Source: an uncultured Bacilli bacterium (lineage in GTDB: Bacteria; Bacillota_I; Bacilli_A; RF39; UBA660). From it: a stretch of 64,000 bases of DNA. Shown here piece by piece: positions 1,826 to 62,700 of this stretch. How positions within the stretch are numbered: position 1 is the stretch's first letter; the number at the start of each line of letters is the position of its first letter. The notes below the pieces were generated by a model, which saw only the letters and a list, made by a program, of their open reading frames with translations, did not search any database and had not been told where the DNA came from. The position numbers and the translations under genes are program-made. Location: the NCBI GenBank assembly GCA_934086395.1, contig CAKOIE010000001.1, forward strand, positions 17,871-81,870, given 5' to 3'.

Positions 1826-1834
1826 AATGGCCTT

Positions 1835-3982: not shown

Positions 3983-4048
3983 CTCTCATCATTTTTATTA
4001 TACCAAAAATTAAAAATTTACGCTACATAAGTAGCAAAAAAAGAAGAA

Positions 4049-6421
4049 TTATGATAATTCTTCTTCTACATTTGTTATATTAGATAAATCTATATTATAT
4101 TCTTCTTGTTCTATTGAAAGATTGGATAAAGTAATATTATTATCAAAAACGCCTGTTTTAAAAATTTCTCTGACTACCGCAAGCATAACATCAACTACTA
4201 TACTATTACCAGCTTGTTTATACATTTGTGCTCGTGATACAACAATTTTAAAGTTGTCCGAATATCCCATAAGCCTCAAGGCTTCTCTTTCAGTAAGCAT
4301 TCTTAGCTTATCTTCTCCACCTTTATCAGTCATATAATTGTCAACACCAGCTCTATGCCTATTTCCCATTGTTGATAAGATAGTCCTTGCTACATCTAAA
4401 TCATACTTAATTGATGTTCTAAATGTTTTTGTTCCTGGAGTTAATACATATTTTCTAACCAAATCAGATAATACATATTTATCATCAACTCTTGAAGGAT
4501 CAAACTCGGACTCTTTAATTGAAATATTACCACATTCATCATATTGAAAATTACCAAATTCGCATTTTGATTCTAAAAATTGTTTCATACTAAATTTTAG
4601 TTCTATTGGTAATGGATATTCAAAATTTTTCTTTATATCTAAATCATTTCTAATGCCAACAACAAAAACTCTTCTTCTATTTTGTGGTATTCCATAATCA
4701 GCCGCATTTAATATTTGAGGTTCGGTAATATTATAATTTAAAGATTTAAAAATCCCTTTTATAATTTCCCATGTATTTCCATGATCATGTGTAGTCAATC
4801 CTCGAACATTTTCATATATAAATACTTTTGGATTTGCTTCTTTAATAATCCTTGCATATTCATAGAATAATGTACCTCTTGCATCTTCAAGGCCTCCTTT
4901 AAAGCCTACTGTTGAAAATGATTGACACGGACTTCCACCTACTAATAAATCAACTTTATCTTTATAATCAGTACCATCTAATAAGTTTATATCTAAATGA
5001 AAATCATCTTCAATTATTTTATCTCCATAATTTTCCATATAACTTTGTTTTACATAATTTTTCTTTTTGCTTTTAGAAGCATATAAATCATCTACATATT
5101 TTTTCTTTTCTAATTTGGAATTCATATTTTTTATTTTTTTAAATTCTTTTTCATGGTCATATTTAATTTCAATATCTCCATTATCACATGCAAAAACAAT
5201 TTCATATGGTGTATTATTTCTTATGAGTGCTTGTTCAATTGCACCTATACCACTGAATAATGTAGCTAGTTTTAGCTTAGGTTTTATAACATCAACTGCT
5301 TTTAATTCTTCGGTTTTAAATACGCCTGTATCTATTAGGTTTGGAATAATTTTTTCAAATATATTAACAACAATACTATTACCAGCTTGTCTATATTTAT
5401 CTTTATCTAACATTCCTTTGGGAAATTTAAATTTTTTTGAAAATCCCATAAGATTTGTACATTCTAATGGAGTTAGTTTTCTACAGGCGCCTTTTTTACC
5501 ATTATAAGTAGAAATATATGCAATATTCATAATATCAGCATTATCTTTTATTTTTTCATATGGAACAAACACAAATTCTCCATTCCAATTAAATTGTTGA
5601 TTTGCTTTTTGACATTGCATTATATTAGAATTAACTTGTGCTCTATTTTTATATTTTGGATTAGTAACAAATTCAAAACCTTTTTTACCCAAATAATACT
5701 TTGGATCAACTTTTAAGTCATCTTCCAAATAATCTTTAACTGTAGTTTTTAATTCTTCTTCTTCAGGAAATTTGAATGGAGCTGTATCTAAATCATTTCT
5801 TATACCTATAACGAATAGCCTAGGTCTATTTTGTGGTATTCCAAAATCTTTAGCATTTAATATAGGATTTTTTCTTATATATATTTTATAATTTAATTCT
5901 TTAAATGTATTTTGAACGGTTTCCCATGTTCTACCTTTATCATGATTTAGCATTCCTTTAACATTTTCAAATATAAAAGCCTTTGGTTGACATTCTTTAA
6001 TAATCCTTGCATATTCATAGAATAATGTACCTCTTGTATCATTAAATCCTCCACGTTTTCCAATTATTGAAAATGATTGGCATGGACTTCCACCTACTAG
6101 CAAATCGACTTCACCCTTATACATAGATCCATCTAAAAATCTTATATCTTGATAGAAATCTTTATCATCGATTTCATAATTTTCCTTATATGTTTGATAC
6201 ATACAATTAGGTTTTTTTAATGAACTATATAAATCATTAATATATTTATTTTTTTCTTCTAAAGACATATTTTCTATTTTTTTTAAAATTTCTTCTTTCG
6301 AATAAGGTAATTCTCTCTCACCATTATCACATGCAAAAATTATTTTATGTTTAACATCTAATTTTTCTAACGCTTGTTCAATTGCACCTATACCACTAAA
6401 TAGCGTTGCTAATTTTATCAT
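4049..6421 (-). CDS. Fused tandem DNA (cytosine-5) methyltransferase: two complete Dcm-type modules in one 790-aa polypeptide
   Basis: Each half carries the full ordered motif set: LFSGIGA (I), GGSPCQSFS (IV), ENVKGM/ENVRGL (VI), QNRPR/QNRRR (VIII) and AGNSIVV (X). The second module starts near KLKLATLFSGIGAIEQAL. Confidence 0.85.
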   Translation of the reverse strand: MIKLATLFSGIGAIEQALEKLDVKHKIIFACDNGERELPYSKEEILKKIENMSLEEKNKYINDLYSSLKKPNCMYQTYKENYEIDDKDFYQDIRFLDGSMYKGEVDLLVGGSPCQSFSIIGKRGGFNDTRGTLFYEYARIIKECQPKAFIFENVKGMLNHDKGRTWETVQNTFKELNYKIYIRKNPILNAKDFGIPQNRPRLFVIGIRNDLDTAPFKFPEEEELKTTVKDYLEDDLKVDPKYYLGKKGFEFVTNPKYKNRAQVNSNIMQCQKANQQFNWNGEFVFVPYEKIKDNADIMNIAYISTYNGKKGACRKLTPLECTNLMGFSKKFKFPKGMLDKDKYRQAGNSIVVNIFEKIIPNLIDTGVFKTEELKAVDVIKPKLKLATLFSGIGAIEQALIRNNTPYEIVFACDNGDIEIKYDHEKEFKKIKNMNSKLEKKKYVDDLYASKSKKKNYVKQSYMENYGDKIIEDDFHLDINLLDGTDYKDKVDLLVGGSPCQSFSTVGFKGGLEDARGTLFYEYARIIKEANPKVFIYENVRGLTTHDHGNTWEIIKGIFKSLNYNITEPQILNAADYGIPQNRRRVFVVGIRNDLDIKKNFEYPLPIELKFSMKQFLESKCEFGNFQYDECGNISIKESEFDPSRVDDKYVLSDLVRKYVLTPGTKTFRTSIKYDLDVARTILSTMGNRHRAGVDNYMTDKGGEDKLRMLTEREALRLMGYSDNFKIVVSRAQMYKQAGNSIVVDVMLAVVREIFKTGVFDNNITLSNLSIEQEEYNIDLSNITNVEEELS

Positions 6422-20304: not shown

Positions 20305-20363
20305 CTTTTATTCTCCTTCCGCCATGATTTAAATTAAATCATAGAAATTCGTTTTACTTCGAT

Positions 20364-21544: not shown

Positions 21545-21662
21545 AAAACTCTTGAAAGAGTTAGTAATAAATCTCTTTCATCGATATTAGCATTACCACC
21601 TTGCCTTAAGTAGGTTGGTATGAGTTCTTAGAGCTAATTCTCTCCCTCATTCTTGATAAAAT
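21545..21662 (-). ncRNA. SAM-I (S-box) riboswitch with terminator, leader of metK
   Basis: The reverse complement reads UUAUCAAGAAUGAGGGAGAGAAUUAGCUCUAAGAACUCAUACCAACC..AAGGUGGUAAUGCUAAUAUCGAUGAAAGAGAU, matching S-box landmarks (UUAUCAAGA, GAGGGA, CAACC, AAGGUG.UAAU, GAAAGA). The terminator AACUCU-UUCA-AGAGUU plus U6 follows. Confidence 0.75.
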
Positions 21663-29022: not shown

Positions 29023-29634
29023 TCAATGCTTGGATTTGTAGTTTTGATTATAATATTTTTTGGTATATTTATCTAATTCATTTATAAAGATATTTGCATA
29101 ATGTCTAATTTCTTGTTGTTCAAAAATATTTTGTAGATAATCTTCTAAAATGATTTGTTCACAAAGTTTAATTGCTTCTTCGATAGAGCCTGTTAATGGT
29201 ATTTTAGTTATAAAATTAGAATTATCAGGCAATTGACAATATAAAAAATATAATTCAGCTTTTAAATCTTTCTTTGTAAATGATTCTAAGCCATCAAATA
29301 AAGTAAAATTATTAAAGTAAAAATCAGATAATGCTTTTTTTCTAATATCTAAATATTTATTTAATTTAATTTTTAGGGCGTCTTCTGGTTCATTTTTTTC
29401 ATTTTGTGTTAAACTATGAGTATTTAGTTCTTCTATAAGTATTTCATTTGCTTCATTTATTTGTTTGGTTATTTTTTCAGCTAAGTCTTGTTGTTCTTTT
29501 GATGAAGTTGCAAATTTATCAGGATGCCATTTAATTATTAATTTCCGATAAGATGATTTTAATTCTTCAAATGTATAATTAACTGGTAATTTAAATAGTT
29601 TTCTTGCTTCATAAAGATTCATTTTATTATCCAT
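29023..29634 (-). CDS. J-domain (DnaJ-like) protein, tandem paralogue 1
   Basis: J domain with HPD: NLYEARKLFKLPVNYTFEELKSSYRKLIIKWHPDKF. Start moved to M20 (ATG 29634), which follows AAAAGGAGAAAA. No Gly/Phe or zinc-finger regions. Confidence 0.7.
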   Translation of the reverse strand: MDNKMNLYEARKLFKLPVNYTFEELKSSYRKLIIKWHPDKFATSSKEQQDLAEKITKQINEANEILIEELNTHSLTQNEKNEPEDALKIKLNKYLDIRKKALSDFYFNNFTLFDGLESFTKKDLKAELYFLYCQLPDNSNFITKIPLTGSIEEAIKLCEQIILEDYLQNIFEQQEIRHYANIFINELDKYTKKYYNQNYKSKH

Positions 29635-29839
29635 TTTATATTTTCTCCTTTTGATGTCGTATATTGTAGCATATATATTAGGAAAATACAACTATTTAAA
29701 TGTATATAAATTAAAAATCAAAATTAAAAGACTTATTGCAGTTTTTCCAATCAAAACCTGAAATAAGTCTAATAAATCAAATATATTTTTATAAACCTGC
29801 ATTTAATCTAAAAATTCACGTTAGTGTTAAAAATTCGTA

Positions 29840-30460
29840 TCAATGATTGGATTTTAATTTTTGAGAATAATAATTTTTGGTATATTTATCTAATTCACTA
29901 AGAAAGTTATTTATATTTTCTCTAATATATTGTTCTTCGATAATATTTTGAAGATAATCTTCTAAAATGTTTGTTTCATAAAATTTAATTGTTTCTTCGA
30001 TAGAGCCTGTTAATAATATTGTAGTTATAAAAAGAGAATTATCAGGCAATTTATAATATAGATAATATAATTCATCATTTAATTCTTTATTAGTTAATGA
30101 TTCTAATTTGGAAAATAAAGTGAAGTTATCAAGATAAAGATCTAATAATGCCTGTTTTCGAATATTTAAATATTTATCTAATTGAATTTTTATATTTTTT
30201 AAGGCTTCTTTTAGTTCATTTTTTTCATTTTGAGTTAAACTATGACTATTTAGTTCTTCTATAAGTATTTCATTTGCTTCATTTATTTGTTTAGCTATTT
30301 TTTCAGCTAAGTCCTGTTGTTCTTTTGATGAAGTTGCAAATTTATCAGGATGCCATTTAATTATTAATTTACGATAAGATGATTTTAATTCTTCAAATGT
30401 ATAATTAACTGGTAATTTAAATAGTTTTCTTGCTTCATAAAGATTCATTTTATTATCCAT
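29840..30460 (-). CDS. J-domain (DnaJ-like) protein, tandem paralogue 2
   Basis: Nearly identical J domain. Start at M20 (ATG 30460). The copies are offset by 817 bp at the stop codons and 826 bp at the starts. Confidence 0.7.
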   Translation of the reverse strand: MDNKMNLYEARKLFKLPVNYTFEELKSSYRKLIIKWHPDKFATSSKEQQDLAEKIAKQINEANEILIEELNSHSLTQNEKNELKEALKNIKIQLDKYLNIRKQALLDLYLDNFTLFSKLESLTNKELNDELYYLYYKLPDNSLFITTILLTGSIEETIKFYETNILEDYLQNIIEEQYIRENINNFLSELDKYTKNYYSQKLKSNH

Positions 30461-30536
30461 TTTATATTTTCCCCTTTTGTTATCGTGTACTATAGCATAT
30501 ATGTCAAGGAAATACAACTATTTAAATGTATATACA

Positions 30537-30907: not shown

Positions 30908-32827
30908 ATGATGATTATGAAAAGAATGTATAATTTATATAGAATATTTCTTTTTTTGTGGATATCCTTTGTTGTTTGCATATGGGGTATTTATTTGTAT
31001 GCTTATATAAGTCCAAAGATTGTTCTTAATTCGGCAAATAGGATTTATTTATATGATAATAAGGAAGAATTAGTGTTTGAAAGTAATAACAATAATGATT
31101 GGGTTTCACTTAAGGATATATCTATGTATGTAACAAATGCGACTATTATTAGTGAGGATAAGAGTTTTTATAATCATAGTGGATTTGATTATTTAAGAAT
31201 TGGTAAGGCAATGTTTAATAATATTAAAAGTGGAACGATTGTAGAAGGGGCATCTACTATTTCCCAGCAATATGTTAAGAATTTGTATTTAGATTTTAAT
31301 CAAACTTGGAAAAGAAAGATTGATGAGGCATTTTTAACAATTAAATTAGAACTTAGATACTCTAAGGATGAGATATTGGAAGGATATTTAAATACGATTA
31401 ATTATGGACAAGGTAATTATGGGATTGCTAGTGCGAGTAAGTATTATTTTAATAAAAATGCGAGTGATTTAACACTTGAGGAAGCTTTGATGCTAGTAGG
31501 TATTCCAAGAAGTCCAGAAAATAATAATCCGATTGCTAATTATGATAATTGTATTAAAAGGGCTAAAATTATTGCTAGTTTGCTTGTTAAAAATGGTTAT
31601 ATAACTAAAGAAGAATATGATAATTTGTATAAAAATAAAATTGAAATTTATGGTAAAAGAGAAAGAAATAATATGAGTACTTTAATGTATTATAGTGATG
31701 CGGTTAATGAGGAGTTAAATAGTATTTCTTCGATTCCTAAAAGTTTGATTAAATCTGGTGGTATTAAAATTTATACTACTTTGGATGTTAATGCCCAAAA
31801 GAAGTTAGATGATTCGATTAAAGAAAATGGTAGTAATGAGGATGATGTTCAATTAGCGGGAATTCTTGTTAATCCGAAAACTGGTGGGGTACTAGCACTC
31901 GCTGGAGGAAAAAATTATGCAAGAAGCCAGTATAACCGCGTTACTCAATCTAAAAGACAAGTTGGTTCTACTATTAAACCTTTTCTTTATTATTCGGCTC
32001 TTGAAAATAATATGACAGAAAGTAGTAGGTTTTATAGTTCGAAAATTAGTTTTGTGTTTGGTAATAAGGAAACTTATACACCTAATAATTATTCTAATTT
32101 ATATGCAAATAAGGAGATTACGATGGCGGCGGCTCTTGCCTATTCGGATAATATTTATGCGGTTAAGACACATTTGTTTTTAGGTGAAGAACAACTAGTT
32201 AAAACTATGAAAATGGCGGGACTAAAAGAAAAATTAAATCCAGTACCTTCACTTGCGCTTGGTTCTCAAGAACTTAATATGCTCGATTACGCTAATAGTT
32301 ATGTAACTCTTGCTAATTATGGAACTACAAATGAAACCTATTTTATTGAACGTGTTGAGGATGTTAATGGAAATCTTTTATATAAACATAAGGAAAACTC
32401 TAAAGAGGTTTTTAATAAGGATTCAGTGTTTATAATTAATGAGATGATGACAAACACATATAATCCGGCTTTTATTGATTATCTAAACCCAACTATTATT
32501 TATTTAAATAGTAAGATTTCAAGAAAATATGCAATTAAAAGTGGGACTACTGATAATGATTATTGGATTGTTGGATATAATCCTGATGCCTTAATGATGG
32601 TATGGGCTGGTAATGACATGAATAAGAATGTTAATTCGGTTTATAGCAAAAAAATAAAAAATATATGGTGTGATACGATTGAAGAATATCTTAAGGATAA
32701 GGAAACTAGTTGGTATGAACCTTCAAATAATATTATTGGTATTCCACTAGATGCAGTGTCTGGTGATACTCCTAAAAGTAGTAAAAATACGGTAATTTAT
32801 TATTATAAAAAAGGTACGGAAAATTAA
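30908..32827 (+). CDS. Class A penicillin-binding protein (glycosyltransferase plus transpeptidase)
   Basis: 639 aa. Contains a TM anchor, the GT51 motifs EDKSFYNHSGFD, GASTISQQ and RKIDEA, and the TPase motifs STIKP, SDN and KSGTT. Confidence 0.88.
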   Translation: MMIMKRMYNLYRIFLFLWISFVVCIWGIYLYAYISPKIVLNSANRIYLYDNKEELVFESNNNNDWVSLKDISMYVTNATIISEDKSFYNHSGFDYLRIGKAMFNNIKSGTIVEGASTISQQYVKNLYLDFNQTWKRKIDEAFLTIKLELRYSKDEILEGYLNTINYGQGNYGIASASKYYFNKNASDLTLEEALMLVGIPRSPENNNPIANYDNCIKRAKIIASLLVKNGYITKEEYDNLYKNKIEIYGKRERNNMSTLMYYSDAVNEELNSISSIPKSLIKSGGIKIYTTLDVNAQKKLDDSIKENGSNEDDVQLAGILVNPKTGGVLALAGGKNYARSQYNRVTQSKRQVGSTIKPFLYYSALENNMTESSRFYSSKISFVFGNKETYTPNNYSNLYANKEITMAAALAYSDNIYAVKTHLFLGEEQLVKTMKMAGLKEKLNPVPSLALGSQELNMLDYANSYVTLANYGTTNETYFIERVEDVNGNLLYKHKENSKEVFNKDSVFIINEMMTNTYNPAFIDYLNPTIIYLNSKISRKYAIKSGTTDNDYWIVGYNPDALMMVWAGNDMNKNVNSVYSKKIKNIWCDTIEEYLKDKETSWYEPSNNIIGIPLDAVSGDTPKSSKNTVIYYYKKGTEN

Positions 32828-32828
32828 A

Positions 32829-32859
32829 AATGACTTATGAAAATTAATCATAGGTCATT
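32829..32859. terminator. Bidirectional hairpin between the convergent PBP and noc-like genes
   Basis: AATGACTTATGA (32829-40) pairs with TCATAGGTCATT (32848-59), one G-U pair. T-rich tracts lie on both sides. The hairpin overlaps the noc-like TGA stop. Confidence 0.5.
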
Positions 32860-34087
32860 TATTTATTTTAATTATTGCTTGATATAAATCTGAAAAATCG
32901 TAATCTTCAAATTCAATATTGAAACCAGCATCTTTTATTTCTTTATTTAAATCAGAGATGGCTTTTTTTACACTATTTAAATCTTTTGGTATAATTCTTG
33001 GCTTAGGTGGTTCAACTGGTGTTTCGGGTACAACGATTGGTTCTGTTACTTCTAATTTTGGTTCTTCTTTTTCTTCACTAATTGGTTCTTCAGGTTGTTC
33101 TGGTACCAAAATATCACTTTCGATGCCTAAATCCATATTTGTTTGTAAATCTTCTAGAGATGGATAATCTGGTTTTGGTTCTTTTCCAATTGTTGGAATA
33201 TCAAATATATTTGTACTATTATCAGGTTGAGGTTTTGTTGGTACTTGTTCTTTTTCTTGAATTTCCTTAATTTCAGGATCTGGGTTTACTTCAATAGTTT
33301 CTTCTTTTGGAACTGGTTCTATTTTAGATTCAGTTATTGGTTGATCCTCTTTTGATTCAACAACTGGTGGAACAAATTTTGGCTCTTGATCACTTAATGG
33401 TTCTTCAGGAAATTTTACATTAAATAAATCTAATGAATCACTAATATTAGGAACCTCTGGTATTTTAAATGATAGATTTGGACTTATTGGACTAGTTAAC
33501 TTGCTTATTTCATTATCTAAATCTTTAACTGTTAATCTTTCATTAATAACTTTGTTTAACATTTCTTCTTGTTTATCTAGTGATGATAATTTGAGTAATG
33601 CTCTTGCATGACGCTCACTTATTTTATTTTCACTTAAGGCTTGTTTAACAGGTTCGGCAAGACTTAGAAGTCTTAATTTATTAGCAATAGTACTTTGAGA
33701 TACACCTATTTCTTTAGCTAGTTCTTCTTGCGTTTTTAAACCTTGGTCTAATATTCTCTTATACGATTTTGCTTCTTCCATTGGGTTTAAATTTCTTCTT
33801 TGAACATTTTCAATAACAGCTACTTGAGCACTTTTATAATCACTTAAATTTCTAACGATAACGGGTACTTTAGTTAGGCCAGCAAGACATGCAGCTTTGT
33901 AACGTCTTTCACCTGCAATAATTTCATATTTATCATTTAATTGTCTTACGATAATTGGTTCAATAATTCCATGTTCTTTTATAGAATCAGCAAGTTCATT
34001 TAAAGCCTTTTCATCAAAAACAAGACGTGGTTGAAAACGATTTGGGATTATTAAATCTATACTTACATTTAAAATTGCATTTTCCAT
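32855..34087 (-). CDS. noc: ParB-family protein, Noc-like, with a ~170-aa Pro/Glu-rich insert
   Basis: 410 aa. Contains IIPNRFQPR, IIAGERRYKA and the HTH GVSQSTIANKLRLLSL...ISERHARAL (B. subtilis Noc: GKGQSTIANKLRLLKL...ITERHARAL). The C-terminus ..AGFNIEFEDYDFSDLYQAIIKINK resembles the Noc C-terminus. It sits in the rsmG-proximal position. Confidence 0.65.
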   Translation of the reverse strand: MENAILNVSIDLIIPNRFQPRLVFDEKALNELADSIKEHGIIEPIIVRQLNDKYEIIAGERRYKAACLAGLTKVPVIVRNLSDYKSAQVAVIENVQRRNLNPMEEAKSYKRILDQGLKTQEELAKEIGVSQSTIANKLRLLSLAEPVKQALSENKISERHARALLKLSSLDKQEEMLNKVINERLTVKDLDNEISKLTSPISPNLSFKIPEVPNISDSLDLFNVKFPEEPLSDQEPKFVPPVVESKEDQPITESKIEPVPKEETIEVNPDPEIKEIQEKEQVPTKPQPDNSTNIFDIPTIGKEPKPDYPSLEDLQTNMDLGIESDILVPEQPEEPISEEKEEPKLEVTEPIVVPETPVEPPKPRIIPKDLNSVKKAISDLNKEIKDAGFNIEFEDYDFSDLYQAIIKINK

Positions 34088-34371: not shown

Positions 34372-36075
34372 GTGAAAAAGTATTTATTAAAAGTTAAAAA
34401 ATTAATGGTATTATTAATTTTAATATATGCTATGATTTCTTTAGTTAGTTTATTTAATCCAATAGTTAGTGCCAGGTTATTAACAAGCTTAACTGAATTA
34501 AATATAAATCAAACATATAAGTTTGGAACACTATTTTTCTTAGTATCTGTTATGACTGGCATATTTAATAAATTAGCTGTTAAAGTATTATCTTATATTG
34601 AAGAAAGATTATTATATGAAATTAGATGTGATATGATTGAAAGATTAATGAATTATAAAATTAAAAATTTTGATAATAGTTCTTCTGGAGAATTTTTAAA
34701 TAAAATAAAAAATGATCCTCAAGATATAGTTTCTGTTTTTAGTATTGTTCAATATAATATTTTTAATATAGTAACAGAATTTTTTATGTTAATTTATGTT
34801 TTTTATCTTAATTTTTTATTAGGTATAATTTATTTTATTGGAATTATCTTTATTTATTTTTACGAAAAATATTCATATATAAGATTAGAAAAATTACAGA
34901 ACAATTTAAAAAATCAAATGGATAAAAATGATTCAACTATTACCGAAATTATTAGAGGAATAAAGGATATTAAATTGCTTGGAATTTCTAATAAGATTAA
35001 AGGTAACACTATGAAATCATTTGAAGAACAAGTTAAAAATAATGCAAGTATAAATATATTTCAAAATAATATTTATAATAATGTTGAAATGTGTAAGGTG
35101 GTTATTACAGCATTGATTATATTTGTTGGCTTATTTTTAATAAATAATAATTTATTAACTTTATCGACATTTTTAATTATATTTTTATATCGTAATGATA
35201 TTTTTTCTTTAATTTTTAGTTATACATCTTTAAAGGAATATTTGGTAAGATATAAAGTTGCTAAAAATCGAATTAGGGAATTGTTTGATGAAAATAAATA
35301 TCCTATTCAAAAATATGGAGATATTGATTTAAAAAATATAAATGGAATTATTGAATTTAAAAATGTTACTTTTTCATATGATAATAAAAGAAAAGTTCTT
35401 GATAATATTTCATTTAAAATTGATAAATGTGAAGATGTTGCAATTGTTGGTAAAAGTGGTAGTGGTAAAAGTACTATATTTAATTTATTAACGAAATGCT
35501 ATGACAATTATCAGGGAACAATTTTTATTGATGGTGTAGATATTAGGGATTTATCTTACTCATCTATAACTAATAATATTTCAATAATTAATCAAAATCC
35601 TTATTTGTTTAATTTAACAATAAAAGAAAATTTAAAATTACTTGATAGAAATATCACTGACAAAGAAATGATTGTAGCTTGTAAAATTGCTAATATTCAT
35701 GAAGATATTATAAAGTTACCAAATAAATATAACACATTGTTAGGCGAAGGTGGACTTAATTTATCAGGTGGTCAAAAACAAAGGCTTGCAATTGCTAGAG
35801 CACTTTTAAAAAAAAGCAAAATATTATTATTTGATGAAGCAACAAGTAGTCTTGATAATATAACTCAAAAAAATGTCCAAACAGCAATTAAAAAGATTTC
35901 AAAAGATTGCACTATTGTTACAATAGCACATCGTTTTTCAACAATTATAGATGTTAATAAGATAATTGTTTTAAAAGATGGAAAAAAAGTTATTGAGGGG
36001 AAGCATGAAGATTTATTAAATAATGATTATTATAATAGCTTATATATTTCAGATAAAATAGTTGATGATAAATAA
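34372..36075 (+). CDS. ABC exporter, fused permease/ATPase
   Basis: 567 aa with a GTG start. Six-TM N-terminal domain, then GKSGSGKST, LSGGQKQR and LLFDEATS. Confidence 0.85.
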   Translation: MKKYLLKVKKLMVLLILIYAMISLVSLFNPIVSARLLTSLTELNINQTYKFGTLFFLVSVMTGIFNKLAVKVLSYIEERLLYEIRCDMIERLMNYKIKNFDNSSSGEFLNKIKNDPQDIVSVFSIVQYNIFNIVTEFFMLIYVFYLNFLLGIIYFIGIIFIYFYEKYSYIRLEKLQNNLKNQMDKNDSTITEIIRGIKDIKLLGISNKIKGNTMKSFEEQVKNNASINIFQNNIYNNVEMCKVVITALIIFVGLFLINNNLLTLSTFLIIFLYRNDIFSLIFSYTSLKEYLVRYKVAKNRIRELFDENKYPIQKYGDIDLKNINGIIEFKNVTFSYDNKRKVLDNISFKIDKCEDVAIVGKSGSGKSTIFNLLTKCYDNYQGTIFIDGVDIRDLSYSSITNNISIINQNPYLFNLTIKENLKLLDRNITDKEMIVACKIANIHEDIIKLPNKYNTLLGEGGLNLSGGQKQRLAIARALLKKSKILLFDEATSSLDNITQKNVQTAIKKISKDCTIVTIAHRFSTIIDVNKIIVLKDGKKVIEGKHEDLLNNDYYNSLYISDKIVDDK

Positions 36076-36094: not shown

Positions 36095-36130
36095 TAAAAA
36101 AATCAGAAGGATTATTTCTTTCTGATTTTT
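36095..36130. terminator. Bidirectional intrinsic terminator (ABC exporter / rsmG)
   Basis: ATCAGAA (36102-08) pairs with TTCTGAT (36120-26), flanked by an A7 run and a T4AT3 run. Confidence 0.6.
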
Positions 36131-36833
36131 ATTTCAATGGTTTTTTTGTTATTTTATCATAATTTCTTGGATAAATAGATGGTGTTTCATTTACTTTTGT
36201 TATTTTAATTAAAGTTCTTAGCGATTCTTCTTTGGGTAAATTAAATTTTTGAATATCAGTTATTTCTCCACCTAAGATTTTAATACCTGATTTACTATTT
36301 TCTAATTCAGTACTAGCATCTGCTTTCATTAAAACTAAATTACCACCTATTTTTAGAAATGGTATACATAATTCATCTAAAACTGGCATGTTTGATACTG
36401 CTCTTGCGACAACTATGTCATATTTATTGCCTTTTTTAAAGAAATTTTCAGCACGATCATTTATTATATTTATATCTGTTAATTTTAATTTGTTAATAAC
36501 ATATCTTTGAAATTCACTTTTTTTATTATTACTATCTAATAAAGTTAATTTTAAATTGGGATATACTATTTTTATAACTATTCCGGGAAAACCGCCACCT
36601 GAGCCAACATCTAGAACTGATAAATCTTTAGTTAAATCGATTATTTTAGATAGGGTTAGTGAATCATAAAAGTGTTTTAAGTAAATGCTTTCTTTATCAG
36701 TAATAGCGGTTATATTGGTATGTTTGTTATATTCAATTAAAATATTAGCATATTTTTCTAAAGATTCTAATTGAGTGTCAGTTAGGCTTATTCCTAATTT
36801 TGATAATTCACTTTTAAATTCTTCTTTATTCAT
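36129..36833 (-). CDS. rsmG: 16S rRNA (guanine527-N7)-methyltransferase
   Basis: 234 aa. Contains VLDVGSGGGFPGIV. Follows mnmG. Confidence 0.88.
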   Translation of the reverse strand: MNKEEFKSELSKLGISLTDTQLESLEKYANILIEYNKHTNITAITDKESIYLKHFYDSLTLSKIIDLTKDLSVLDVGSGGGFPGIVIKIVYPNLKLTLLDSNNKKSEFQRYVINKLKLTDINIINDRAENFFKKGNKYDIVVARAVSNMPVLDELCIPFLKIGGNLVLMKADASTELENSKSGIKILGGEITDIQKFNLPKEESLRTLIKITKVNETPSIYPRNYDKITKKPLK

Positions 36834-42800: not shown

Positions 42801-42923
42801 CTACTTACATAATACTTTACGACCTTTACGTCTACGAGATTTTAATATGTTAGAATTTTTTCTAGCAAAGAATCCATGTTTCTTTTTCATTTTTCTATTG
42901 TTTGGTTGATATGTTCTTTTCAT
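42801..42923 (-). CDS. rpmH: 50S ribosomal protein L34
   Basis: The last 40 codons of the 140-aa track ORF read MKRTYQPNNRKMKKKHGFFARKNSNILKSRRRKGRKVLCK. ATG at 42923 is preceded by GGAGGTG. Confidence 0.9.
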   Translation of the reverse strand: MKRTYQPNNRKMKKKHGFFARKNSNILKSRRRKGRKVLCK

Positions 42924-42991
42924 CGTTTGCACCTCCGCTTCATTCGTAATCATAGTATAATATAAGTTAGAAAAAAAGTAAAGAAAAATAG

Positions 42992-43166
42992 TTTTCCACA
43001 ATAATGTGTGGAAAAGTGGAAAACTTTTTAACAATGTGAATTTAAAATTGTTGAAATTGTGGATAAGTTGTTTACATTCCGATAAAATGGACTTATTTTT
43101 GTGGAAAAGTATGTGTATAACTATGTTTAAAAAAAATTTTTGTATTTTTTTCTTTATTTTTCCACA
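42992..43166. promoter_or_regulatory. oriC part 1: DnaA-box cluster upstream of dnaA
   Basis: TTTTCCACA at 42992-43000 and 43158-43166. TGTGGAAAA at 43007-15 and 43100-08. AGTGGAAAA at 43015-23. A perfect TGTGGATAA (rc TTATCCACA) at 43058-66. AT-rich tracts lie in between. Confidence 0.85.
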
Positions 43167-43215
43167 ATCGTGGTTTACAATAGGGGTAGCAAAAACGAAG
43201 TATCGGGGTGATGGT

Positions 43216-44598
43216 ATGGACAATGAACAATTATGGAATAAATTTTTAAAAGAAATTCAAATTAAGATACAACCATTTTCTTTTAATAGTTGGTTAAAAC
43301 CCACGAAATTACTAGGGATAAATGAAAATTCTTGTATTGTAGAGGTTGAGAGTGAGTTTCAAAAAACATTTCTTTCTAAGAACTATACTGACTTAATGAG
43401 TGAAGTTTTATATGGAATAACTAATGTTAATTATGATTTTGAATTTGTTCTTAAAAGTGAAAAACATAATGAAGAAATTATTAAAGAAGAGAAAAGCGTT
43501 GAAACAAAAAATCTTGGCAAATCCCTAGAAATAGAGCATAAAAAGTTAAATTCGAATTTAAAACCAGAGTATACTTTTGATAATTTTATTGTTGGAGATA
43601 CTAATAGATTTGCGACTGTTTCAGCTCAAGCGGTAGCAGAAAATCCGGGGAAAATATATAATCCTTTATTTATATATGGAAAGAGTGGTCTTGGTAAAAC
43701 CCATTTAATGCATGCGATAGGAAATCAGATTGTTAAAAATTCTGGGAAAGTTGTTTTATATGTAACTAGTAGTGAATTTATTGCAGACTTTACTGGAATG
43801 CTTAGAAAAGATAAGAATGTTGATAATTATGAGGTTATGAACAATTTTAAAGATAAATATCGTAACATTGATGTTCTTATTATAGATGATATTCAATTTT
43901 TATCGGGAGCTGATAAATCACAAGATGAATTTTTCCATACATTTACTGAATTATACGATTCAAATAAACAAATAATTATAAGTTCAGATAGATCGCCAGA
44001 TGATTTAAAATTATTGGAAGAACGTCTATTAACTAGATTTAGATGGGGTTTAACAGCGAATATTTATCCACCAGATTTTGAACTTAGATGTCAAATTCTT
44101 AGAAATAAGATGATGGGGCATGAGGTGGCGGAAATGGTTAGTGATAAAGTAATTGAATATATTGCTTCTAATTGTGATAATGACGTTAGACAATTAGAGG
44201 GAGCAATAACTAGATTGTATGCTTACGCTGCAATGATGAGACCACCAGAAATAAATGTTGAATTTGCAACAGAAGCACTTAAAGAATTTTTGGGCAAATC
44301 AATTTATATAACAAATAATATTCAAAGGATTCAAAGAGCTGTTGCTGAATATTTTAACTTAAGTGTTGAGGATTTAAAAAGTAAGAAGAGAAATGCGAAC
44401 ATAAATTATGCAAGACAAATTGCAATATATTTAAGCCAAACTACTACTGATGAGACTCTTGTTAAAATAGGACTTGAATTTGGAAATAGAGACCATTCAA
44501 CAGTTATACATGCATGTGATAAAATAGAAGAGGATATTAACACAAATGCGAAGTTAAAAGATGATATTGAGAACATAAAAAATAAAATTGTTAATTAA
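43216..44598 (+). CDS. dnaA: Chromosomal replication initiator DnaA
   Basis: Start taken at M71 of the track ORF (MDNEQLWNKFLKEIQ). Contains GKSGLGKTHL, LIIDDIQFL and a C-terminal HTH with DHSTVIHA. Confidence 0.92.
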   Translation: MDNEQLWNKFLKEIQIKIQPFSFNSWLKPTKLLGINENSCIVEVESEFQKTFLSKNYTDLMSEVLYGITNVNYDFEFVLKSEKHNEEIIKEEKSVETKNLGKSLEIEHKKLNSNLKPEYTFDNFIVGDTNRFATVSAQAVAENPGKIYNPLFIYGKSGLGKTHLMHAIGNQIVKNSGKVVLYVTSSEFIADFTGMLRKDKNVDNYEVMNNFKDKYRNIDVLIIDDIQFLSGADKSQDEFFHTFTELYDSNKQIIISSDRSPDDLKLLEERLLTRFRWGLTANIYPPDFELRCQILRNKMMGHEVAEMVSDKVIEYIASNCDNDVRQLEGAITRLYAYAAMMRPPEINVEFATEALKEFLGKSIYITNNIQRIQRAVAEYFNLSVEDLKSKKRNANINYARQIAIYLSQTTTDETLVKIGLEFGNRDHSTVIHACDKIEEDINTNAKLKDDIENIKNKIVN

Positions 44599-44668
44599 TG
44601 TGGAAAAGTTCTAAAATAAAAATTTTAAAGAAAGCCTTTAAAATAGAGAAGTTTTAGAGTTTTCCACA
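44599..44668. promoter_or_regulatory. oriC part 2: DnaA boxes between dnaA and dnaN
   Basis: TGTGGAAAA at 44599-44607 and TTTTCCACA at 44660-44668. Confidence 0.7.
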
Positions 44669-45920: not shown

Positions 45921-45961
45921 ATGTTGTGATTTAATATACGACTAAAGAGGGGGTGAGTAGT

Positions 45962-46411
45962 TTGAAAAGTTATAAGATTACAGAAAATACATTAGCGATT
46001 GTACCATTAAGTAAAAAGAAAACAGTTGTATATGAAAATCACGATTATTATATTTTAGATAAGAATGTATCATCAGTTATTAATGAAAATTGCGAATATT
46101 ATGGAAGCAGTATTGATGGTAGATTAAAAGGAACTTATGCTATGCTTGGTTTTGGTTATAAGGCTCCAATTGTTATGTCTGAACAAGATAATATGATATT
46201 TTTTCCAACATGTTCTCCTAGATTAAAAGAATGTTCTTGGATTAATTTAGGAAATATAAAAAAAATAGTTCCGGATGACGAAAAAACAACTATTCAATTT
46301 TTAAATGATGAAGAAATAAATGTAGATGCAACTTATAATATAATAAGAAATCAATACTTTAAATCTTTGTCGCTTGATAATGCATTAAAAAATAGAAAAA
46401 AAGATAAATAA
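45962..46411 (+). CDS. ComK-family transcription factor homologue
   Basis: CEYYGSSIDGRLKGTYAMLGFGYKAPIVMSEQDNMIFFPTCSPRLKECSWIN aligns with B. subtilis ComK CRFFGSSYAGRKAGTYEVTKISHKPPIMVDPSNQIFLFPTLSSTRPQCGWIS. TTG 45962 is preferred over GTG 45953 on SD spacing (AGAGGGGG). Confidence 0.75.
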   Translation: MKSYKITENTLAIVPLSKKKTVVYENHDYYILDKNVSSVINENCEYYGSSIDGRLKGTYAMLGFGYKAPIVMSEQDNMIFFPTCSPRLKECSWINLGNIKKIVPDDEKTTIQFLNDEEINVDATYNIIRNQYFKSLSLDNALKNRKKDK

Positions 46412-52114: not shown

Positions 52115-52224
52115 TTTATATCGTTTTTCTTTTGATTTAAAAAGTTTTCCACATTTTTTTCATTTCAATATTTAAATTTTAGTTAGTTATTTATTAACAT
52201 TTTATTTATATATTTTAAAAAATT

Positions 52225-52238
52225 ATTTCCCGGGAAAT
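52225..52238. promoter_or_regulatory. Noc-binding-site (NBS) palindrome 1
   Basis: ATTTCCCGGGAAAT is perfect, embedded in a longer perfect palindrome AATTATTTCCCGGGAAATAATT (52221-52242). Confidence 0.7.
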
Positions 52239-52338
52239 AATTTTTTTATAATTTAATAATAATTTTTTATTAATCTAATAATTTTATGATCTTTTATTAT
52301 CCTTTTCAAAAGTTATTAACATTATTTTAATTATTTAT

Positions 52339-52352
52339 GTTTCACGTGAAAC
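52339..52352. promoter_or_regulatory. parS site 1
   Basis: GTTTCACGTGAAAC is perfect. The 16-mer TGTTTCACGTGAAACT matches the consensus at 15/16. Confidence 0.8.
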
Positions 52353-52390
52353 TTGTGTTATAGATATGTAATAATAAATATATTTATTAA

Positions 52391-52404
52391 GTTTCACGTG
52401 AAAC
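52391..52404. promoter_or_regulatory. parS site 2
   Basis: GTTTCACGTGAAAC is perfect. The 16-mer matches at 15/16. Confidence 0.8.
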
Positions 52405-52437
52405 ATATATGATTTTTATAGTATTTATTGTAAAATT

Positions 52438-52451
52438 ATTTCCCGGGAAAT
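52438..52451. promoter_or_regulatory. NBS palindrome 2
   Basis: ATTTCCCGGGAAAT is perfect, within AATTATTTCCCGGGAAATAATT (52434-52455). Confidence 0.7.
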
Positions 52452-52606
52452 AATTTGTTCGATTTTATTTCTATTAAGACTCTTAATTTTATTCTTTTTA
52501 ATTAATTATTATATTATAAATTTTTATATATTGATTAATTAATTTTTTCTTAATATTTAATTATTTTTTAATACTTTTAATTTATTAATTATATGTATTT
52601 TGTGAT

Positions 52607-52620
52607 GTTTCACGTGAAAC
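52607..52620. promoter_or_regulatory. parS site 3
   Basis: GTTTCACGTGAAAC is perfect. The 16-mer matches at 15/16. Confidence 0.8.
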
Positions 52621-52743
52621 TTATGCGAATTGTTTTTTTTTTATGATTCAGATAGTTAAATTTGTTTATAATATATTATTTTCTTAAGTTAAATTATTTA
52701 TGAATTATATTTAAATAATTTTGCTTATATATGTTCTTGTTAT

Positions 52744-52757
52744 GTTTCACGTGAAAC
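52744..52757. promoter_or_regulatory. parS site 4
   Basis: Perfect 16-mer TGTTTCACGTGAAACA at 52743-52758. Confidence 0.85.
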
Positions 52758-52878
52758 ATAATATTTAATTTTATTGATTGATTTATTATTCATAGTATTT
52801 AAATATAACTTATATTATTTTATATACAATTTTGTTTATATTCTTATTGTTATTAACAATATCTTTATTTTTTTATAA

Positions 52879-52892
52879 GTTTCACGTGAAAC
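52879..52892. promoter_or_regulatory. parS site 5
   Basis: GTTTCACGTGAAAC is perfect. The 16-mer matches at 15/16. Confidence 0.8.
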
Positions 52893-53086
52893 ATCAATGA
52901 TTTTTGTTTTTAATATAATGTAAATTATTTTATTTATTTAATGAAATTTTTATAAAAAAATCATTATTGTTTTATTTAACAATTTTAGAATATTATTTAC
53001 TAAATATTAATTTATCTTTTTTTATATATTAATTAATTAATTTTAATATTTGATTATTTTTAAATCATTATTATATATTTTGTAAT

Positions 53087-53100
53087 GTTTCATGTGAAAC
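53087..53100. promoter_or_regulatory. parS-like site 6 (variant)
   Basis: GTTTCATGTGAAAC, with one central C-to-T change. Confidence 0.6.
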
Positions 53101-53245
53101 TTATTTTTTTATATATAATTTTTTGGTAATTATTTATGATTCAGATATTTAAATTTATTTATATAAATGTTTATATACTATTTTTTAGGTTAATTTAATA
53201 ACAATTTATACTGATAAAAAAATTTGCTTGTATATGTTCTTGTTA

Positions 53246-53259
53246 TGTTTCACGTGAAA
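53246..53259. promoter_or_regulatory. parS site 7
   Basis: Perfect 16-mer TGTTTCACGTGAAACA at 53245-53260. Confidence 0.85.
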
Positions 53260-53314
53260 CATTAATGATTATTATTTTATATAATATAAATTATTTTATT
53301 TATTTAGTGAAATT

Positions 53315-53328
53315 ATTTCCCGGGAAAT
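53315..53328. promoter_or_regulatory. NBS palindrome 3
   Basis: ATTTCCCGGGAAAT is perfect, within AATTATTTCCCGGGAAATAATT (53311-53332). Confidence 0.7.
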
Positions 53329-53451
53329 AATTTGAGAGCTTATTTATAAAAAAATTATTTTTGTTTTATTTAACAATTTTAAAATATTATTTACTAGATA
53401 TTAATTTATTTTTTTAATATATTAATTAATTAATTTTATATATTTTGTAAT

Positions 53452-53465
53452 GTTTCACGTGAAAC
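53452..53465. promoter_or_regulatory. parS site 8
   Basis: Perfect 16-mer TGTTTCACGTGAAACA at 53451-53466. Confidence 0.85.
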
Positions 53466-53519
53466 ATCAATGAATATTGTTTTATATAATATAAATTATT
53501 TTATCTGTTTAGTAAAATT

Positions 53520-53533
53520 ATTTCCCGGGAAAT
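53520..53533. promoter_or_regulatory. NBS palindrome 4
   Basis: ATTTCCCGGGAAAT is perfect, within AATTATTTCCCGGGAAATAATT (53516-53537). Confidence 0.7.
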
Positions 53534-53669
53534 AATTTGTTCGATATTTAATTATTAATTCTTATATATTGTGTAGTAATTAATATGATTTTATTATTAT
53601 TTTAAATATTTTAAAAGTTTTCCACATTATTTTCTTGTTATCTATTAATTGTTGTGGTATATTATATTT

Positions 53670-53747
53670 GTGCAATGTGTATGTAATAACCTGGTCAGAT
53701 TAGGAATAAAGCAGCCATATTTACCTCTACGCATGTGCACTTTTTTT
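53670..53747 (+). ncRNA. ffs: Small (4.5S-type) signal recognition particle RNA
   Basis: CCUGGUCAGAUUAGGAAUAAAGCAGCC matches the SRP domain IV landmark (GGUCAGGUCCGGAAGGAAGCAGCC) with a GGAA loop. The closing helix pairs GUGCAAUGUGUAUG with ACGCAUGUGCAC, followed by U7. The upstream promoter is TTGTTA-17 nt-TATATT (53635-53663). Position is next to tadA/dnaX, as in Bacillus. Confidence 0.75.
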
Positions 53748-53769
53748 ATTTGAAAAGAGGTAGTTATTT

Positions 53770-59775: not shown

Positions 59776-62700
59776 ATGGATTTTTTAGATAAAATATTTG
59801 ATGAATTTAATAGTAATTCTATTTCAGGATTAACTGATGAATTAAAGGGATTATATATTAAATATCTAAGTTATAAATTTAATAAAAATGTAATTGTTGT
59901 AACTAATTCATTATATCAGGCAACTAATTATTATAATTTAATCAATAACTATTTTGATAATAGTTACTTTTTTCCTATGGATGATTTTATAACTACCGTT
60001 CTTACAACTTCTTCTCCTGATTTAATGGTTAAAAGATTAGAAACTTTGTCTTTAATAAGTAAAAATAATGAAAATAAGATTCTTGTTACTAATTTAGAAG
60101 GATTTTTAAAGTTTGTTCCTAAAAAAGATAATATTGTAAATCAGGATATTGTTATTAAAATAAATGATAATTTTAAACGTACTGATTTAGAAGATAAATT
60201 ATTTCAATATGGTTATAATAAGACAAGTATAGTTACTTCAACTGGAGAATATTCTGTTAGAGGTTTTATAATTGATTTATTTCCGTATAATTATGATAAA
60301 CCAATAAGAATTGAATTTTTTGGTGATGAAATAGATAGTATTAAAAAGTTTGATGAAGAATCTCAGCTATCCACCGAAAATATTAGTGATGTTACCATTA
60401 AACCTTATAAGGAAAATGATTTAGAATCTGACTCAACTTTATATGATATTTTAGACAATCCGATAGTTGTTAAGATAGATTCTGATAATATTAAGAAATC
60501 TTATCTTGAATTACAAAACCAAATTCTTGAGTATAAAGAATCTAATAATATTGATATTAATCATAAATATATGGCAAATTTAGAAGATATTTATATTAAA
60601 GATGAATATGAACTTAATAATTTTGATAATAGTAAAAGTTTGAAGGTTAATTCTCAATCAATAGATAATTTTAATTCTAATTTGGAAAATTTACAATTTT
60701 TTATTAATCATCGTAAAAATAGTATGATTACATTTCTGGCAATAAAATCTAAGGGATTAAAAGAAACTTTAAGTAATTTATTTGATGTAAGTATTGATAA
60801 AAATTATTTCCCGGGAAATATTTATTTTTTAGATTATAAGATAAATCATGGTTTTGTATTTGATAAATATATTGTTATTTCAGAAAATGATATTGTTGGA
60901 AGTAATTTTAGTGCTTCTTATTATAATCCGATTAAGATAGGTCGTAAGATTAAGGATTTTAGTGATATTAAACCGGGAGATTATGTTGTTCATAGGGCAC
61001 ATGGTATCGGTATTTATGGTGGTGTAGTTAATTTAGTTAAAAATGGTTTTAATAAAGACTATATTGTTATAAAGTATGCTGGTAATGACAAGGTATATAT
61101 TCCTGTTGAAAAGATTAGTTCTATTTATAAATATGCTGATGCCGGTAGTGGAAATCAAAAAATTAATTCTTTAAATTCTTTATCTTGGGCTAAAGCTAAA
61201 AGAAAGGTTCAAAGTAAAATTAAAGATATTTCTGATGAGTTAATTAAACTTTATTCGGAAAGAAAGAAGATTACTAGTCCGGTATTTAAAGAGATGCCTG
61301 AAGAAGTCATGTTTGCTAGTGATTTTGAATATGTAGAGACTTCTGATCAGTTAAGATGTATTAATGAAGTATTAAATGATTTGGCAAGTAAGAAACCAAT
61401 GGATAGATTGCTTTGTGGTGATGTAGGTTTTGGTAAGACTGAAGTTGCATTTAGAGGAATTTTTAGAACTGTTACTAATGGATATCAAGCAGCTTATTTA
61501 TGTCCGACTACTATTTTATCTAAACAACAATATGAAAATGCTTTAAAAAGATTTAGAAATTTTCCGATTAGAATTGAAATTGTTAATAGATTTACAACTG
61601 CCAATGATTTCAAAAGAATTACTAAGGATTTGGAAGATGGTAAAGTAGATATTTTATTTGGAACTCATAAATTATTTAATGAAAATATAAAATTTAAAAA
61701 ATTAGGACTTCTTGTTGTTGATGAGGAACAACGATTTGGTGTTAGTCAAAAAGAAAAAATTAAAGAAATGTGTACAAGCATTAATGTATTAACTTTATCT
61801 GCAACACCTATTCCTAGAACTTTGAAAATGGCAATGAGTGGACTTAGAGATTTATCAATTTTAGATACTGCACCTGTGGATAGATATCCAATTCAAACTT
61901 ATGTGGCTCAAGATAATGATTTCTTGGTTAAAGAGGCTATTTATAAAGAATTAAGTCGAAGGGGACAAGTTTACTACTTATTTAATAATGTTGAAAAGAT
62001 AGAAGATGAATTAAATAAATTACAGGGAATGGTTCCGGAAGCACGTATTTGTTTTGCTCATGGTAAGATGGATAAATCTCATTTGGAAAAGATAATTGAC
62101 GATTTTGTTAACTATAAATTTGATATTTTAGTTTGTACGACAATAATTGAAACTGGTATAGATATATCGAACGTTAATACATTGATAATAAAAGATGTTC
62201 AAAACTTTGGATTAAGTCAGTTATATCAAATTCGTGGTAGAGTTGGAAGAACAAATAAGATTGCTTATGCTTATTTACTTTATAATAATAGTAAAATTAT
62301 AAGTGAAGTTGCTGAAAAGAGATTGAATGCGATTAAAGAGTTTACTGAACTTGGTAGTGGTTATAAAATCGCTATGAGAGATTTATCTATTAGAGGTGCT
62401 GGAGATTTACTTGGTAGTGAACAGGCAGGATTCATAGAAACCGTTGGTATTGATTTATTTACTAAGATGGTGGAAGAGGCTGTATCTGAAATAAATGGTA
62501 ATCCGATTAAAGAAGATGACAGTGATAAATCATTGATTGATGTAAATACTCATATTGATGAAGATTATGTTCAAGATGAAAGTGTTAGAATTGAGATTCA
62601 CCAATTAATTAATTCAATTTCGGATAAGGAAAGTTTGTTAAGAGTTAAAAGTGAATTAGAGGATCGTTTTGGTAAATTGGATGAGAAAATAATTGTTTAT

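Follow-up and report, generated by a model that had tools for sequence, protein, structure and literature searches.

A Noc-type ParB-family protein with a long acidic linker and no recognisable membrane helix, near a composite parS/NBS array in an uncultured Bacilli bacterium

Noc and ParB are textbook paralogues that have diverged to different DNA sites and different jobs, with parS lying near the replication origin. Known clustered centromeres, among them chromosomal parS clusters and those of the plasmid iteron type, gather many close ParB-type loading sites in one non-coding stretch near the origin. Here we describe a 64,000-nucleotide stretch (hereafter the window) of contig CAKOIE010000001.1 (positions 17,871 to 81,870 of the forward strand; assembly GCA_934086395.1) from an uncultured Bacilli bacterium of the RF39/UBA660 lineage, which encodes a Noc-like ParB-family protein. 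In this window parS and Noc-binding sites (NBS) appear to be set side by side deliberately, together with a Noc paralogue that has no membrane helix.

In Bacillus Noc the first ~26 residues, comprising the amphipathic helix α1, α2 and a loop, are responsible for membrane binding and autoinhibition (PMC8429893); without the membrane helix, B. subtilis Noc does not reach its full activity in nucleoid occlusion. As to the choice of DNA site, Gln173 and Arg201 (Caulobacter numbering) switch specificity to NBS, provided that a permissive Lys is present at 179, at 184 or at both; the third specificity position is redundant, one of the two permissive lysines being enough, and all extant ParB orthologs, without exception, keep Arg173 and Gly201 (PMC7383237).

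The window protein shares with the Noc of B. subtilis and G. thermoleovorans (7OL9, 7NFU, 7NG0, 6Y93) a three-part core: a cytidine triphosphate (CTP)-binding N-domain with GERR and ENxQR motifs, a helix-turn-helix (HTH) domain with Gln, Lys and Arg at the positions that read NBS, and a Noc-type C-terminal dimerisation domain. As in Bacillus, its gene is located downstream of rsmG, and the NBS of the window are identical to the 16-bp site of B. subtilis. It differs from Bacillus Noc in having an acidic linker of 170 aa, predicted to be disordered, at a place that takes up roughly 16 positions of the Noc profile, in a serine at the second permissive lysine position, in a score under the curated family cut-off, and in being, in effect, a natural deletion of the N-terminal helix-α2-loop module. 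With ParB/Spo0J (B. subtilis 6SDK and Caulobacter ParB 6T1F) it has the fold and the CTP-clamp motifs in common (about 160 bits), and both are associated with an origin-proximal cluster of loading sites. However, the window gene has no adjacent soj, the C-terminal domain of its product is acidic, and the protein has no N-terminal extension able to carry a ParA-stimulating/ParA-interacting peptide. The sites differ as well: whereas NBS in B. subtilis are scattered around the chromosome and absent near ter, those of the window are concentrated origin-proximally and interleaved with parS, and, unlike the clustered centromeres, arrays of this type alternate two kinds of site, presumably for two paralogous readers.

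We lean, with modest confidence, towards a reading in which the protein would be an NBS-reading CTP clamp that works beside a separately encoded ParB on a composite origin-proximal array and does without the Bacillus-type membrane helix. In the searchable literature we found no description of a two-reader parS/NBS array and no account of a helix-less Noc, a long-linker Noc or mixed parS/NBS arrays; a paper on Erysipelotrichia genomes makes no mention of ParB, Noc or Soj.

Family assignment and predicted DNA specificity

The 410-aa protein starts MENAILNVSIDLIIPNRFQPR. Pfam models for ParB_N (PF02195, residues 5-96, E = 5.5e-34) and HTH_ParB (PF17762, residues 99-197, E = 8.4e-32) cover its first half, and the top NCBIfam model is Noc (TIGR04285), which matches the native protein at profile positions 2-195 with 276.4 bits; the generic ParB model gives 187 bits, about 90 bits less. 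The last 45 residues (366-410) align alone to positions 211-255 of this 255-position profile. When residues ~201-361 were taken out, the linker-free construct matched TIGR04285 end to end (positions 2-255 of 255) with 288.2 bits. Among solved structures, the Noc entries 7NG0, 7NFU and 7OL9 score 176-187 bits and outrank B. subtilis Spo0J (163 bits). We regard the gene product as a Noc-type rather than a ParB-type member of the ParB/Noc family of CTP clamps, and it would be expected to behave as a clamp. The first-pass annotation, which had called it a Noc-like ParB paralogue with a Noc-like C-terminal dimerisation segment, is borne out on both counts, with dimerisation itself a prediction.

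The HTH of the window protein reads GVSQSTIANKLRLLSLAEPVKQALSENKISERHARALL and is modelled by AlphaFold2 with a predicted local distance difference test score (pLDDT) of 94-98. Alignment to the Noc and Spo0J structures places Q131, K137, S142 and R159 at the four specificity positions, so that the three Noc-like residues of four that had been proposed hold up. ParB-type residues (Arg at 173, Gly or another small residue at 201) are not matched. Since Q131 and R159 occupy the switching positions and K137 can serve as the permissive lysine, the protein is predicted to read NBS; S142 is not a defect, because the third position is redundant and K137 is present. The CTP motifs GERRYKA and ENVQR are complete, and their residues G59, E60, R61, R62, E93, N94, Q96 and R97 are invariant across 102 family members.

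With HMMER, the full set of 1.84 billion cluster representatives (50% identity) was searched exhaustively, and the best 150 were taken and aligned with the window protein (151 sequences). The window protein had been described as atypical, but it is no one-off and belongs to a large subfamily: almost all of the best 150 representatives, proteins mostly of 340-821 aa, have in common with it the Q-K-x-R residues, the shortness of the N-terminus, a linker that is long and acidic, and the C-terminal domain. The pattern Q/K(R)/x/R is found at the four specificity positions in 149 of the 151 sequences, with x being Asn in 105 and Ser in 18; thus, Ser at the third position is normal for the subfamily. 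Identical or near-identical proteins occur in human gut metagenomes under the labels ‘uncultured Bacilli bacterium’ (Hadza metagenome-assembled genomes), ‘uncultured Tenericutes bacterium UMGS1661’ and ‘Bacillales bacterium UBA6331’. Five source names were seen on family members: generic ParB ones (three different names, one of them from two sources) and, once, ‘nucleoid occlusion protein [Clostridium sp. CAG:628]’.

Against related species, the core has a ratio of nonsynonymous to synonymous substitution rates of 0.06-0.09 and the C-terminal domain one of 0.04-0.13; for the linker it is 0.40-0.73. Being low in the two folded parts and higher between them, the ratio indicates that the gene is functional and that its disordered spacer evolves fast but is maintained. 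A decaying, non-functional ParB remnant with a junk low-complexity insert would account for the ratio in the linker and for a score under the curated Noc threshold, but hardly for the strong purifying selection on the core and C-terminal domain, for the retention of reading frame and linker in more than 150 clusters at 50% identity, or for catalytic and DNA-reading residues that are invariant in the family and perfect cognate sites that are maintained across the clade. We give this explanation next to no credence.

The composite array of parS and NBS

The spacer between gyrA and the signal recognition particle (SRP) RNA/tadA is 1.65 kb long, has 17% G+C and lies about 9 kb from dnaA/oriC. It holds eight parS-like sites (TGTTTCACGTGAAACA; 0.08 expected by chance) and, interleaved with them, four perfect copies of the 16-bp NBS TATTTCCCGGGAAATA (Table 1). 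Throughout the 64-kb window there are five perfect B. subtilis-type NBS, four of them in the array, against 0.28 expected, and no NBS with one or two mismatches. The repeat units of the array are 66-93% identical, while their cores are perfect. The fifth NBS, an isolated site within mfd, is kept in two related loci (L008 and L021) and has one mismatch in a third (L020); this retention suggests selection on the DNA site within the coding region. The first-pass annotation had seen a paradox in the only ParB relative near eight parS sites being NBS-type. The parS count stands, as does the statement for the window that it was made for, but the paradox largely dissolves because four perfect NBS interleave with the eight parS.

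The array is unchanged in another sample (L008) and rearranged yet kept in related species (L020, L021), where spacings differ and cores are perfect. A species with 88% identical TadA has a rearranged array of eight parS with three perfect NBS and one with two mismatches; in a species with 74% identical TadA there are six parS, three perfect NBS and one with a single mismatch, again rearranged. In a lineage with 56%-identical TadA four parS remain in the spacer, and NBS are found in dnaX and in a methyltransferase gene.

Public metagenome contigs were then scanned for parS-N(26-56)-NBS. At least 120 low-GC contigs carry such pairs (L023-L142), all those listed having 22-34% G+C, and the following figures refer to the matches listed. 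Nearly all pairs are located at gyrA-tadA-dnaX, with tadA beside the array in 97 contigs and gyrA in 82, and GyrA identity ranges from 47% to 98%. Many arrays alternate strictly, e.g. (NBS-69-parS-36)×6, (NBS-45-parS-67)×6 and (NBS-40-parS-35)×5. On the shared scaffold NTTTCNCGNGAAAN there are 764 sites, of which 429 are pure parS, 319 pure NBS and 16 other; hybrid half-sites make up about 1%. When the contigs were dereplicated to 66 clusters, 210 of the 271 neighbouring pairs were parS-NBS, 52 parS-parS and 9 NBS-NBS. Centre-to-centre parS-NBS distances, with the window array included, peak every ~10.7 bp, near 25, 36, 47, 58 and 68 bp (R = 0.28, p about 5e-6, an optimistic value; 66 clusters). 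Helical phasing of parS and NBS is supported but not proven.

That there are two site classes, discrete and perfectly maintained, implies that each has its own reader. At the ancestral noc position the sole ParB-family gene carries NBS-type residues, which makes the window protein the natural candidate for the NBS reader; taken together, these two points would place a canonical ParB elsewhere in the genome. A single dual-specificity protein, the only ParB-family member of the genome, could instead read both parS and NBS. Half-sites of parS and NBS are distinguished by just two positions, and neither the 64 kb with its flanks nor the rsmG region of relatives yielded a second ParB or a Soj. Among the variants of the published deep mutational scan, however, those specific for parS invariably have Arg at 173, and those that bind both sites mostly carry Thr or Ser at 201 (PMC7383237); the window protein has Gln and Arg; nor would a tolerant single reader be expected to keep the site classes apart, with about 1% of hybrid half-sites. 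The published scan and the near-absence of hybrid sites make one tolerant reader for both sites very unlikely, and we disfavour it.

Because the alternation of parS and NBS is tight and phased, we envisage that the two clamps cooperate on one origin-proximal complex. A different possibility is that an origin-proximal Noc regulates replication initiation or origin architecture and is not a ParB partner. It draws on the distance of about 9 kb from the array to dnaA and on 15-nt direct repeats AAAGTTTTCCACATT that bracket the array (52141-52155 and 53614-53628), each of which holds a DnaA-box-like TTTTCCACA; S. aureus Noc is reported to affect replication initiation (PMC5540599). This would leave the tight alternation and the phased spacing with parS unexplained, and the canonical DnaA-box clusters (42992-43158 and 44599-44660) flank dnaA rather than the array. 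We consider such a role distinctly unlikely.

Several points weigh against the account of two cooperating clamps. The curated TIGR04285 cut-off of 315 bits is missed both by the native protein (276.4) and by the construct without the linker (288.2), and the NBS/parS specificity rules come from a Caulobacter ParB scaffold. No ParA/Soj and no second ParB were detected by Pfam and pre-computed hits within the window and about 9 kb past each end, and a hidden Markov model of the N-terminal half of the family, run on six-frame segments of the window and 144 loci, found no other ParB-family open reading frame; the loci retrieved from the clade showed no ParA either. The metagenome loci were picked for one parS-NBS pair spaced 40-70 bp, which inflates the counts and limits the range of spacings; they are also phylogenetically related, so that the p-values are optimistic, and beyond the imposed 40-70 bp range periodicity is present but not specific to 10.7 bp. 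NBS were mapped in the 64-kb window and short loci, and there they are clustered, not scattered. Finally, AlphaFold2 finds no structure for the short linker motif described below, whose role is a conjecture.

The N-terminus, the acidic linker and possible modes of action

Only 4 residues precede the first strand of the window protein, and 14 precede the proline of the PNRFQPR motif. The N-termini of B. subtilis Noc (MKHSFSRFFGLGEKEQE...) and G. thermoleovorans Noc (MKHPFSRLFSFGEKEQE...), verified in the Protein Data Bank, place about 40 residues before the same proline. The short N-terminus is real, since the upstream frame is full of stops, with in-frame stop codons just before the start, and the ATG has a good Shine-Dalgarno sequence (AGGAAGGG) ahead of it. 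An upstream alternative start that would add a membrane helix is ruled out by the same stops. The feature is subfamily-wide, with 13-21 residues before the proline in 147 of the 151 aligned sequences, and an N-terminal amphipathic membrane-targeting helix was found neither in the window protein nor throughout the subfamily in this alignment. The first-pass annotation had already failed to see such a helix, and we agree with it.

AlphaFold2 was run on the window protein with an alignment of 102 family sequences. It gives high pLDDT for residues 1-200 (87-98) and 361-410 (91-97), and values of 44-65 with no secondary structure for residues 201-360, in line with a disordered linker. The linker itself (170 aa, residues 198-367) contains 19% Pro, 17% Glu and 8% Lys and has a net charge of –25; the insert of ~170 aa had been called P/E/K-rich, which is right as to length, Pro and Glu, but not Lys, and the segment is best described as acidic. 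Across the family, linkers range in length from 0 to 574 aa with a median of 192 aa, and their net charge has a median of –27. The C-terminal domain (pLDDT 91-97) consists of a helix (370-386) and two strands (390-397 and 402-409) and follows a family-wide pattern, AGFxIxxEEFDFEDLYQIIIKIxK.

The linker is not featureless. A short motif, NKFFNF-LEDExxNM, is present in both family consensus sequences and in 50 of 151 family members, compared with 15.3 ± 3.4 in shuffled linkers; the window protein carries a split form of it, NIFD (293-296)...PSLEDLQTNM (309-318). Separately, the relatives P0415 (residues ~205-250), P0209 and P0160 have a second conserved linker element, PLVDIAPSVDEIKNNAxDINP, which immediately follows the DNA-binding domain. 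For a relative, AlphaFold2 models this element with short helices and pLDDT 69-80; in the window protein it can be recognised only weakly.

The first motif invites the idea of classical nucleoid occlusion, with NBS-bound DNA recruited to the membrane by an amphipathic peptide that has moved into the linker. Its family form, [SN][RK]FF[GN][LF]xE[KD]E, is similar to the N-terminal sequences of Noc from B. subtilis (SRFFGLGEKE) and from G. thermoleovorans (SRLFSFGEKE), its hydrophobic moment is 0.53 compared with 0.41-0.47 for those N-termini, and it is commoner than in shuffled linkers. However, the window copy (NIFDIP...PSLEDLQTNM) is split and degenerate, with a moment of 0.28 and not a single basic residue; the motif is missing from abundant relatives, the CAG:628 protein among them. 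AlphaFold2 gives no helix in the region (pLDDT about 50-58), which is likewise unfolded in a relative with the canonical motif. The roughly 25 net negative charges of the linker would be unfavourable near an anionic membrane, and a likeness over ten residues can be due to chance. Because the motif is degenerate in the window protein and no helix is predicted, we keep a relocated membrane helix as a minor rival only, and an improbable one. More generally, membrane tethering under the control of CTP, in the form known from Bacillus, is unlikely here, because the N-terminal helix is missing and the linker is strongly acidic.

In the cooperating-clamp account, a Noc-type dimer, held by its C-terminal domain, would load at the 16-bp NBS, bind CTP, close its N-domains to form a clamp and spread locally, and a canonical ParB encoded outside the 64-kb window would read the parS sites. 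Both paralogous clamps would assemble next to each other on a single centromere-like array whose phasing is roughly helical. The output would pass through the 170-aa disordered acidic linker and its conserved short motif rather than through a DNA-membrane tether. The long linker may also give the clamp a very wide lumen, which, speculatively, could be relevant on ParB-crowded DNA. The protein would probably serve the origin-proximal partition complex by organising, insulating or anchoring it, perhaps in a clade whose locus has lost Soj.

Gene neighbourhood and significance

The rsmG-noc-soj-spo0J string had been described as broken in the window, and this is what we found: an opposite-strand ATP-binding cassette (ABC) exporter separates rsmG from noc, and a penicillin-binding protein (PBP) gene replaces soj-spo0J (Table 1). 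In two more distant relatives rsmG, noc and the PBP gene are directly adjacent. Thus, the loss of soj-spo0J from the rsmG locus is clade-wide and the ABC exporter a local insertion.

Table 1. Coordinates of the features discussed (positions in the window)
Feature	Position	Strand	Basis or remark
Noc-like ParB-family gene	32855..34087	-	410 aa; ParB_N and HTH_ParB; TIGR04285 Noc, 276 bits
N-terminal CTP-binding domain, residues 5-96	33800..34075	-	GERRYKA 59-65; ENVQR 93-97
HTH DNA-binding domain, residues 99-197	33497..33793	-	aligned to Noc 7NG0, 7NFU, 7OL9 and Spo0J 6SDK
Acidic Pro/Glu-rich disordered linker, residues 198-367	32987..33496	-	composition; AlphaFold2 prediction
Conserved short linker motif, residues 293-318	33134..33211	-	alignment of relatives; NIFD...PSLEDLQTNM
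Predicted C-terminal dimerisation domain, residues 368-410	32858..32986	-	Noc profile match; helix and two strands
Class A penicillin-binding protein, convergent with noc	30908..32827	+	in the place of soj-spo0J across the clade
ABC exporter between rsmG and noc	34372..36075	+	missing from more distant relatives
rsmG (gidB), ancestral upstream neighbour of noc	36129..36833	-	annotation and relatives
Composite array between gyrA and SRP RNA/tadA	52224..53534	.	NBS, parS, parS, NBS, parS ×5, NBS, parS, NBS
Eight parS sites, 0-2 mismatches	52338..53466	.	starts 52338, 52390, 52606, 52743, 52878, 53086, 53246, 53451
NBS 1, perfect	52224..52239	.	site scan
NBS 2, perfect	52437..52452	.	47 bp after parS at 52390
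NBS 3, perfect	53314..53329	.	68 bp after parS at 53246
NBS 4, perfect	53519..53534	.	68 bp after parS at 53451
Isolated perfect NBS within mfd (59776-62976)	60805..60820	.	in frame, encodes YFPGNI

The window has about 25% G+C and spans oriC, with the GC skew switching near 42-43 kb. At 43006-44598 and 42801-43223, the listed dnaA reading frame (GTG at 43006, 530 aa) probably starts too far upstream, DnaA of relatives being 445-495 aa long and DnaA boxes lying at 42992-43158. A ComK-family gene (45953-46411) is located between dnaN and recF, an unusual position for this competence regulator that is kept throughout the clade (also in L020, L022, L143 and L144). The small SRP RNA (53659-53754) directly follows the parS/NBS array.

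Sporulation genes SpoIIR and SpoIID are present, along with the class A PBP. Tandem J-domain (DnaJ) paralogues at 29023-29691 and 29840-30517, of 222 and 225 aa, have 171 identical residues; relatives have one copy of 206 aa. A defence island (716-6421) comprises McrB-like and McrC genes and a 790-aa DNA methylase, and the flank next to it differs among samples (loci L005-L007), with Fic, an AAA_21 protein, or SMODS and DUF6602. An S-adenosylmethionine (SAM) riboswitch (21575-21662) lies upstream of metK, and an L31 leader is found at 20313-20344.

The hosts of these proteins are abundant uncultured members of the human gut and rumen microbiota, and current pipelines mostly annotate their Noc-type proteins as generic ParB. 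We tentatively raise a broader proposal: in spore-forming Bacilli of gut and rumen, a broad clade with reduced, low-GC genomes, ParB and a helix-less Noc might form one machine on parS and NBS that alternate strictly and are helically phased in the gyrA-tadA spacer, with the long acidic linker and its motif connecting it to the cell, be it for anchoring, segregation or division control, in place of Soj/ParA or the Noc helix. If the cooperating-clamp account is true, it would mean a second mode of action for Noc-type clamps, independent of the known membrane switch; it would offer a naturally occurring system in which to examine the way that one stretch of DNA is shared or partitioned between two CTP clamps, and would give a function to the long disordered linkers of ParB-family proteins.

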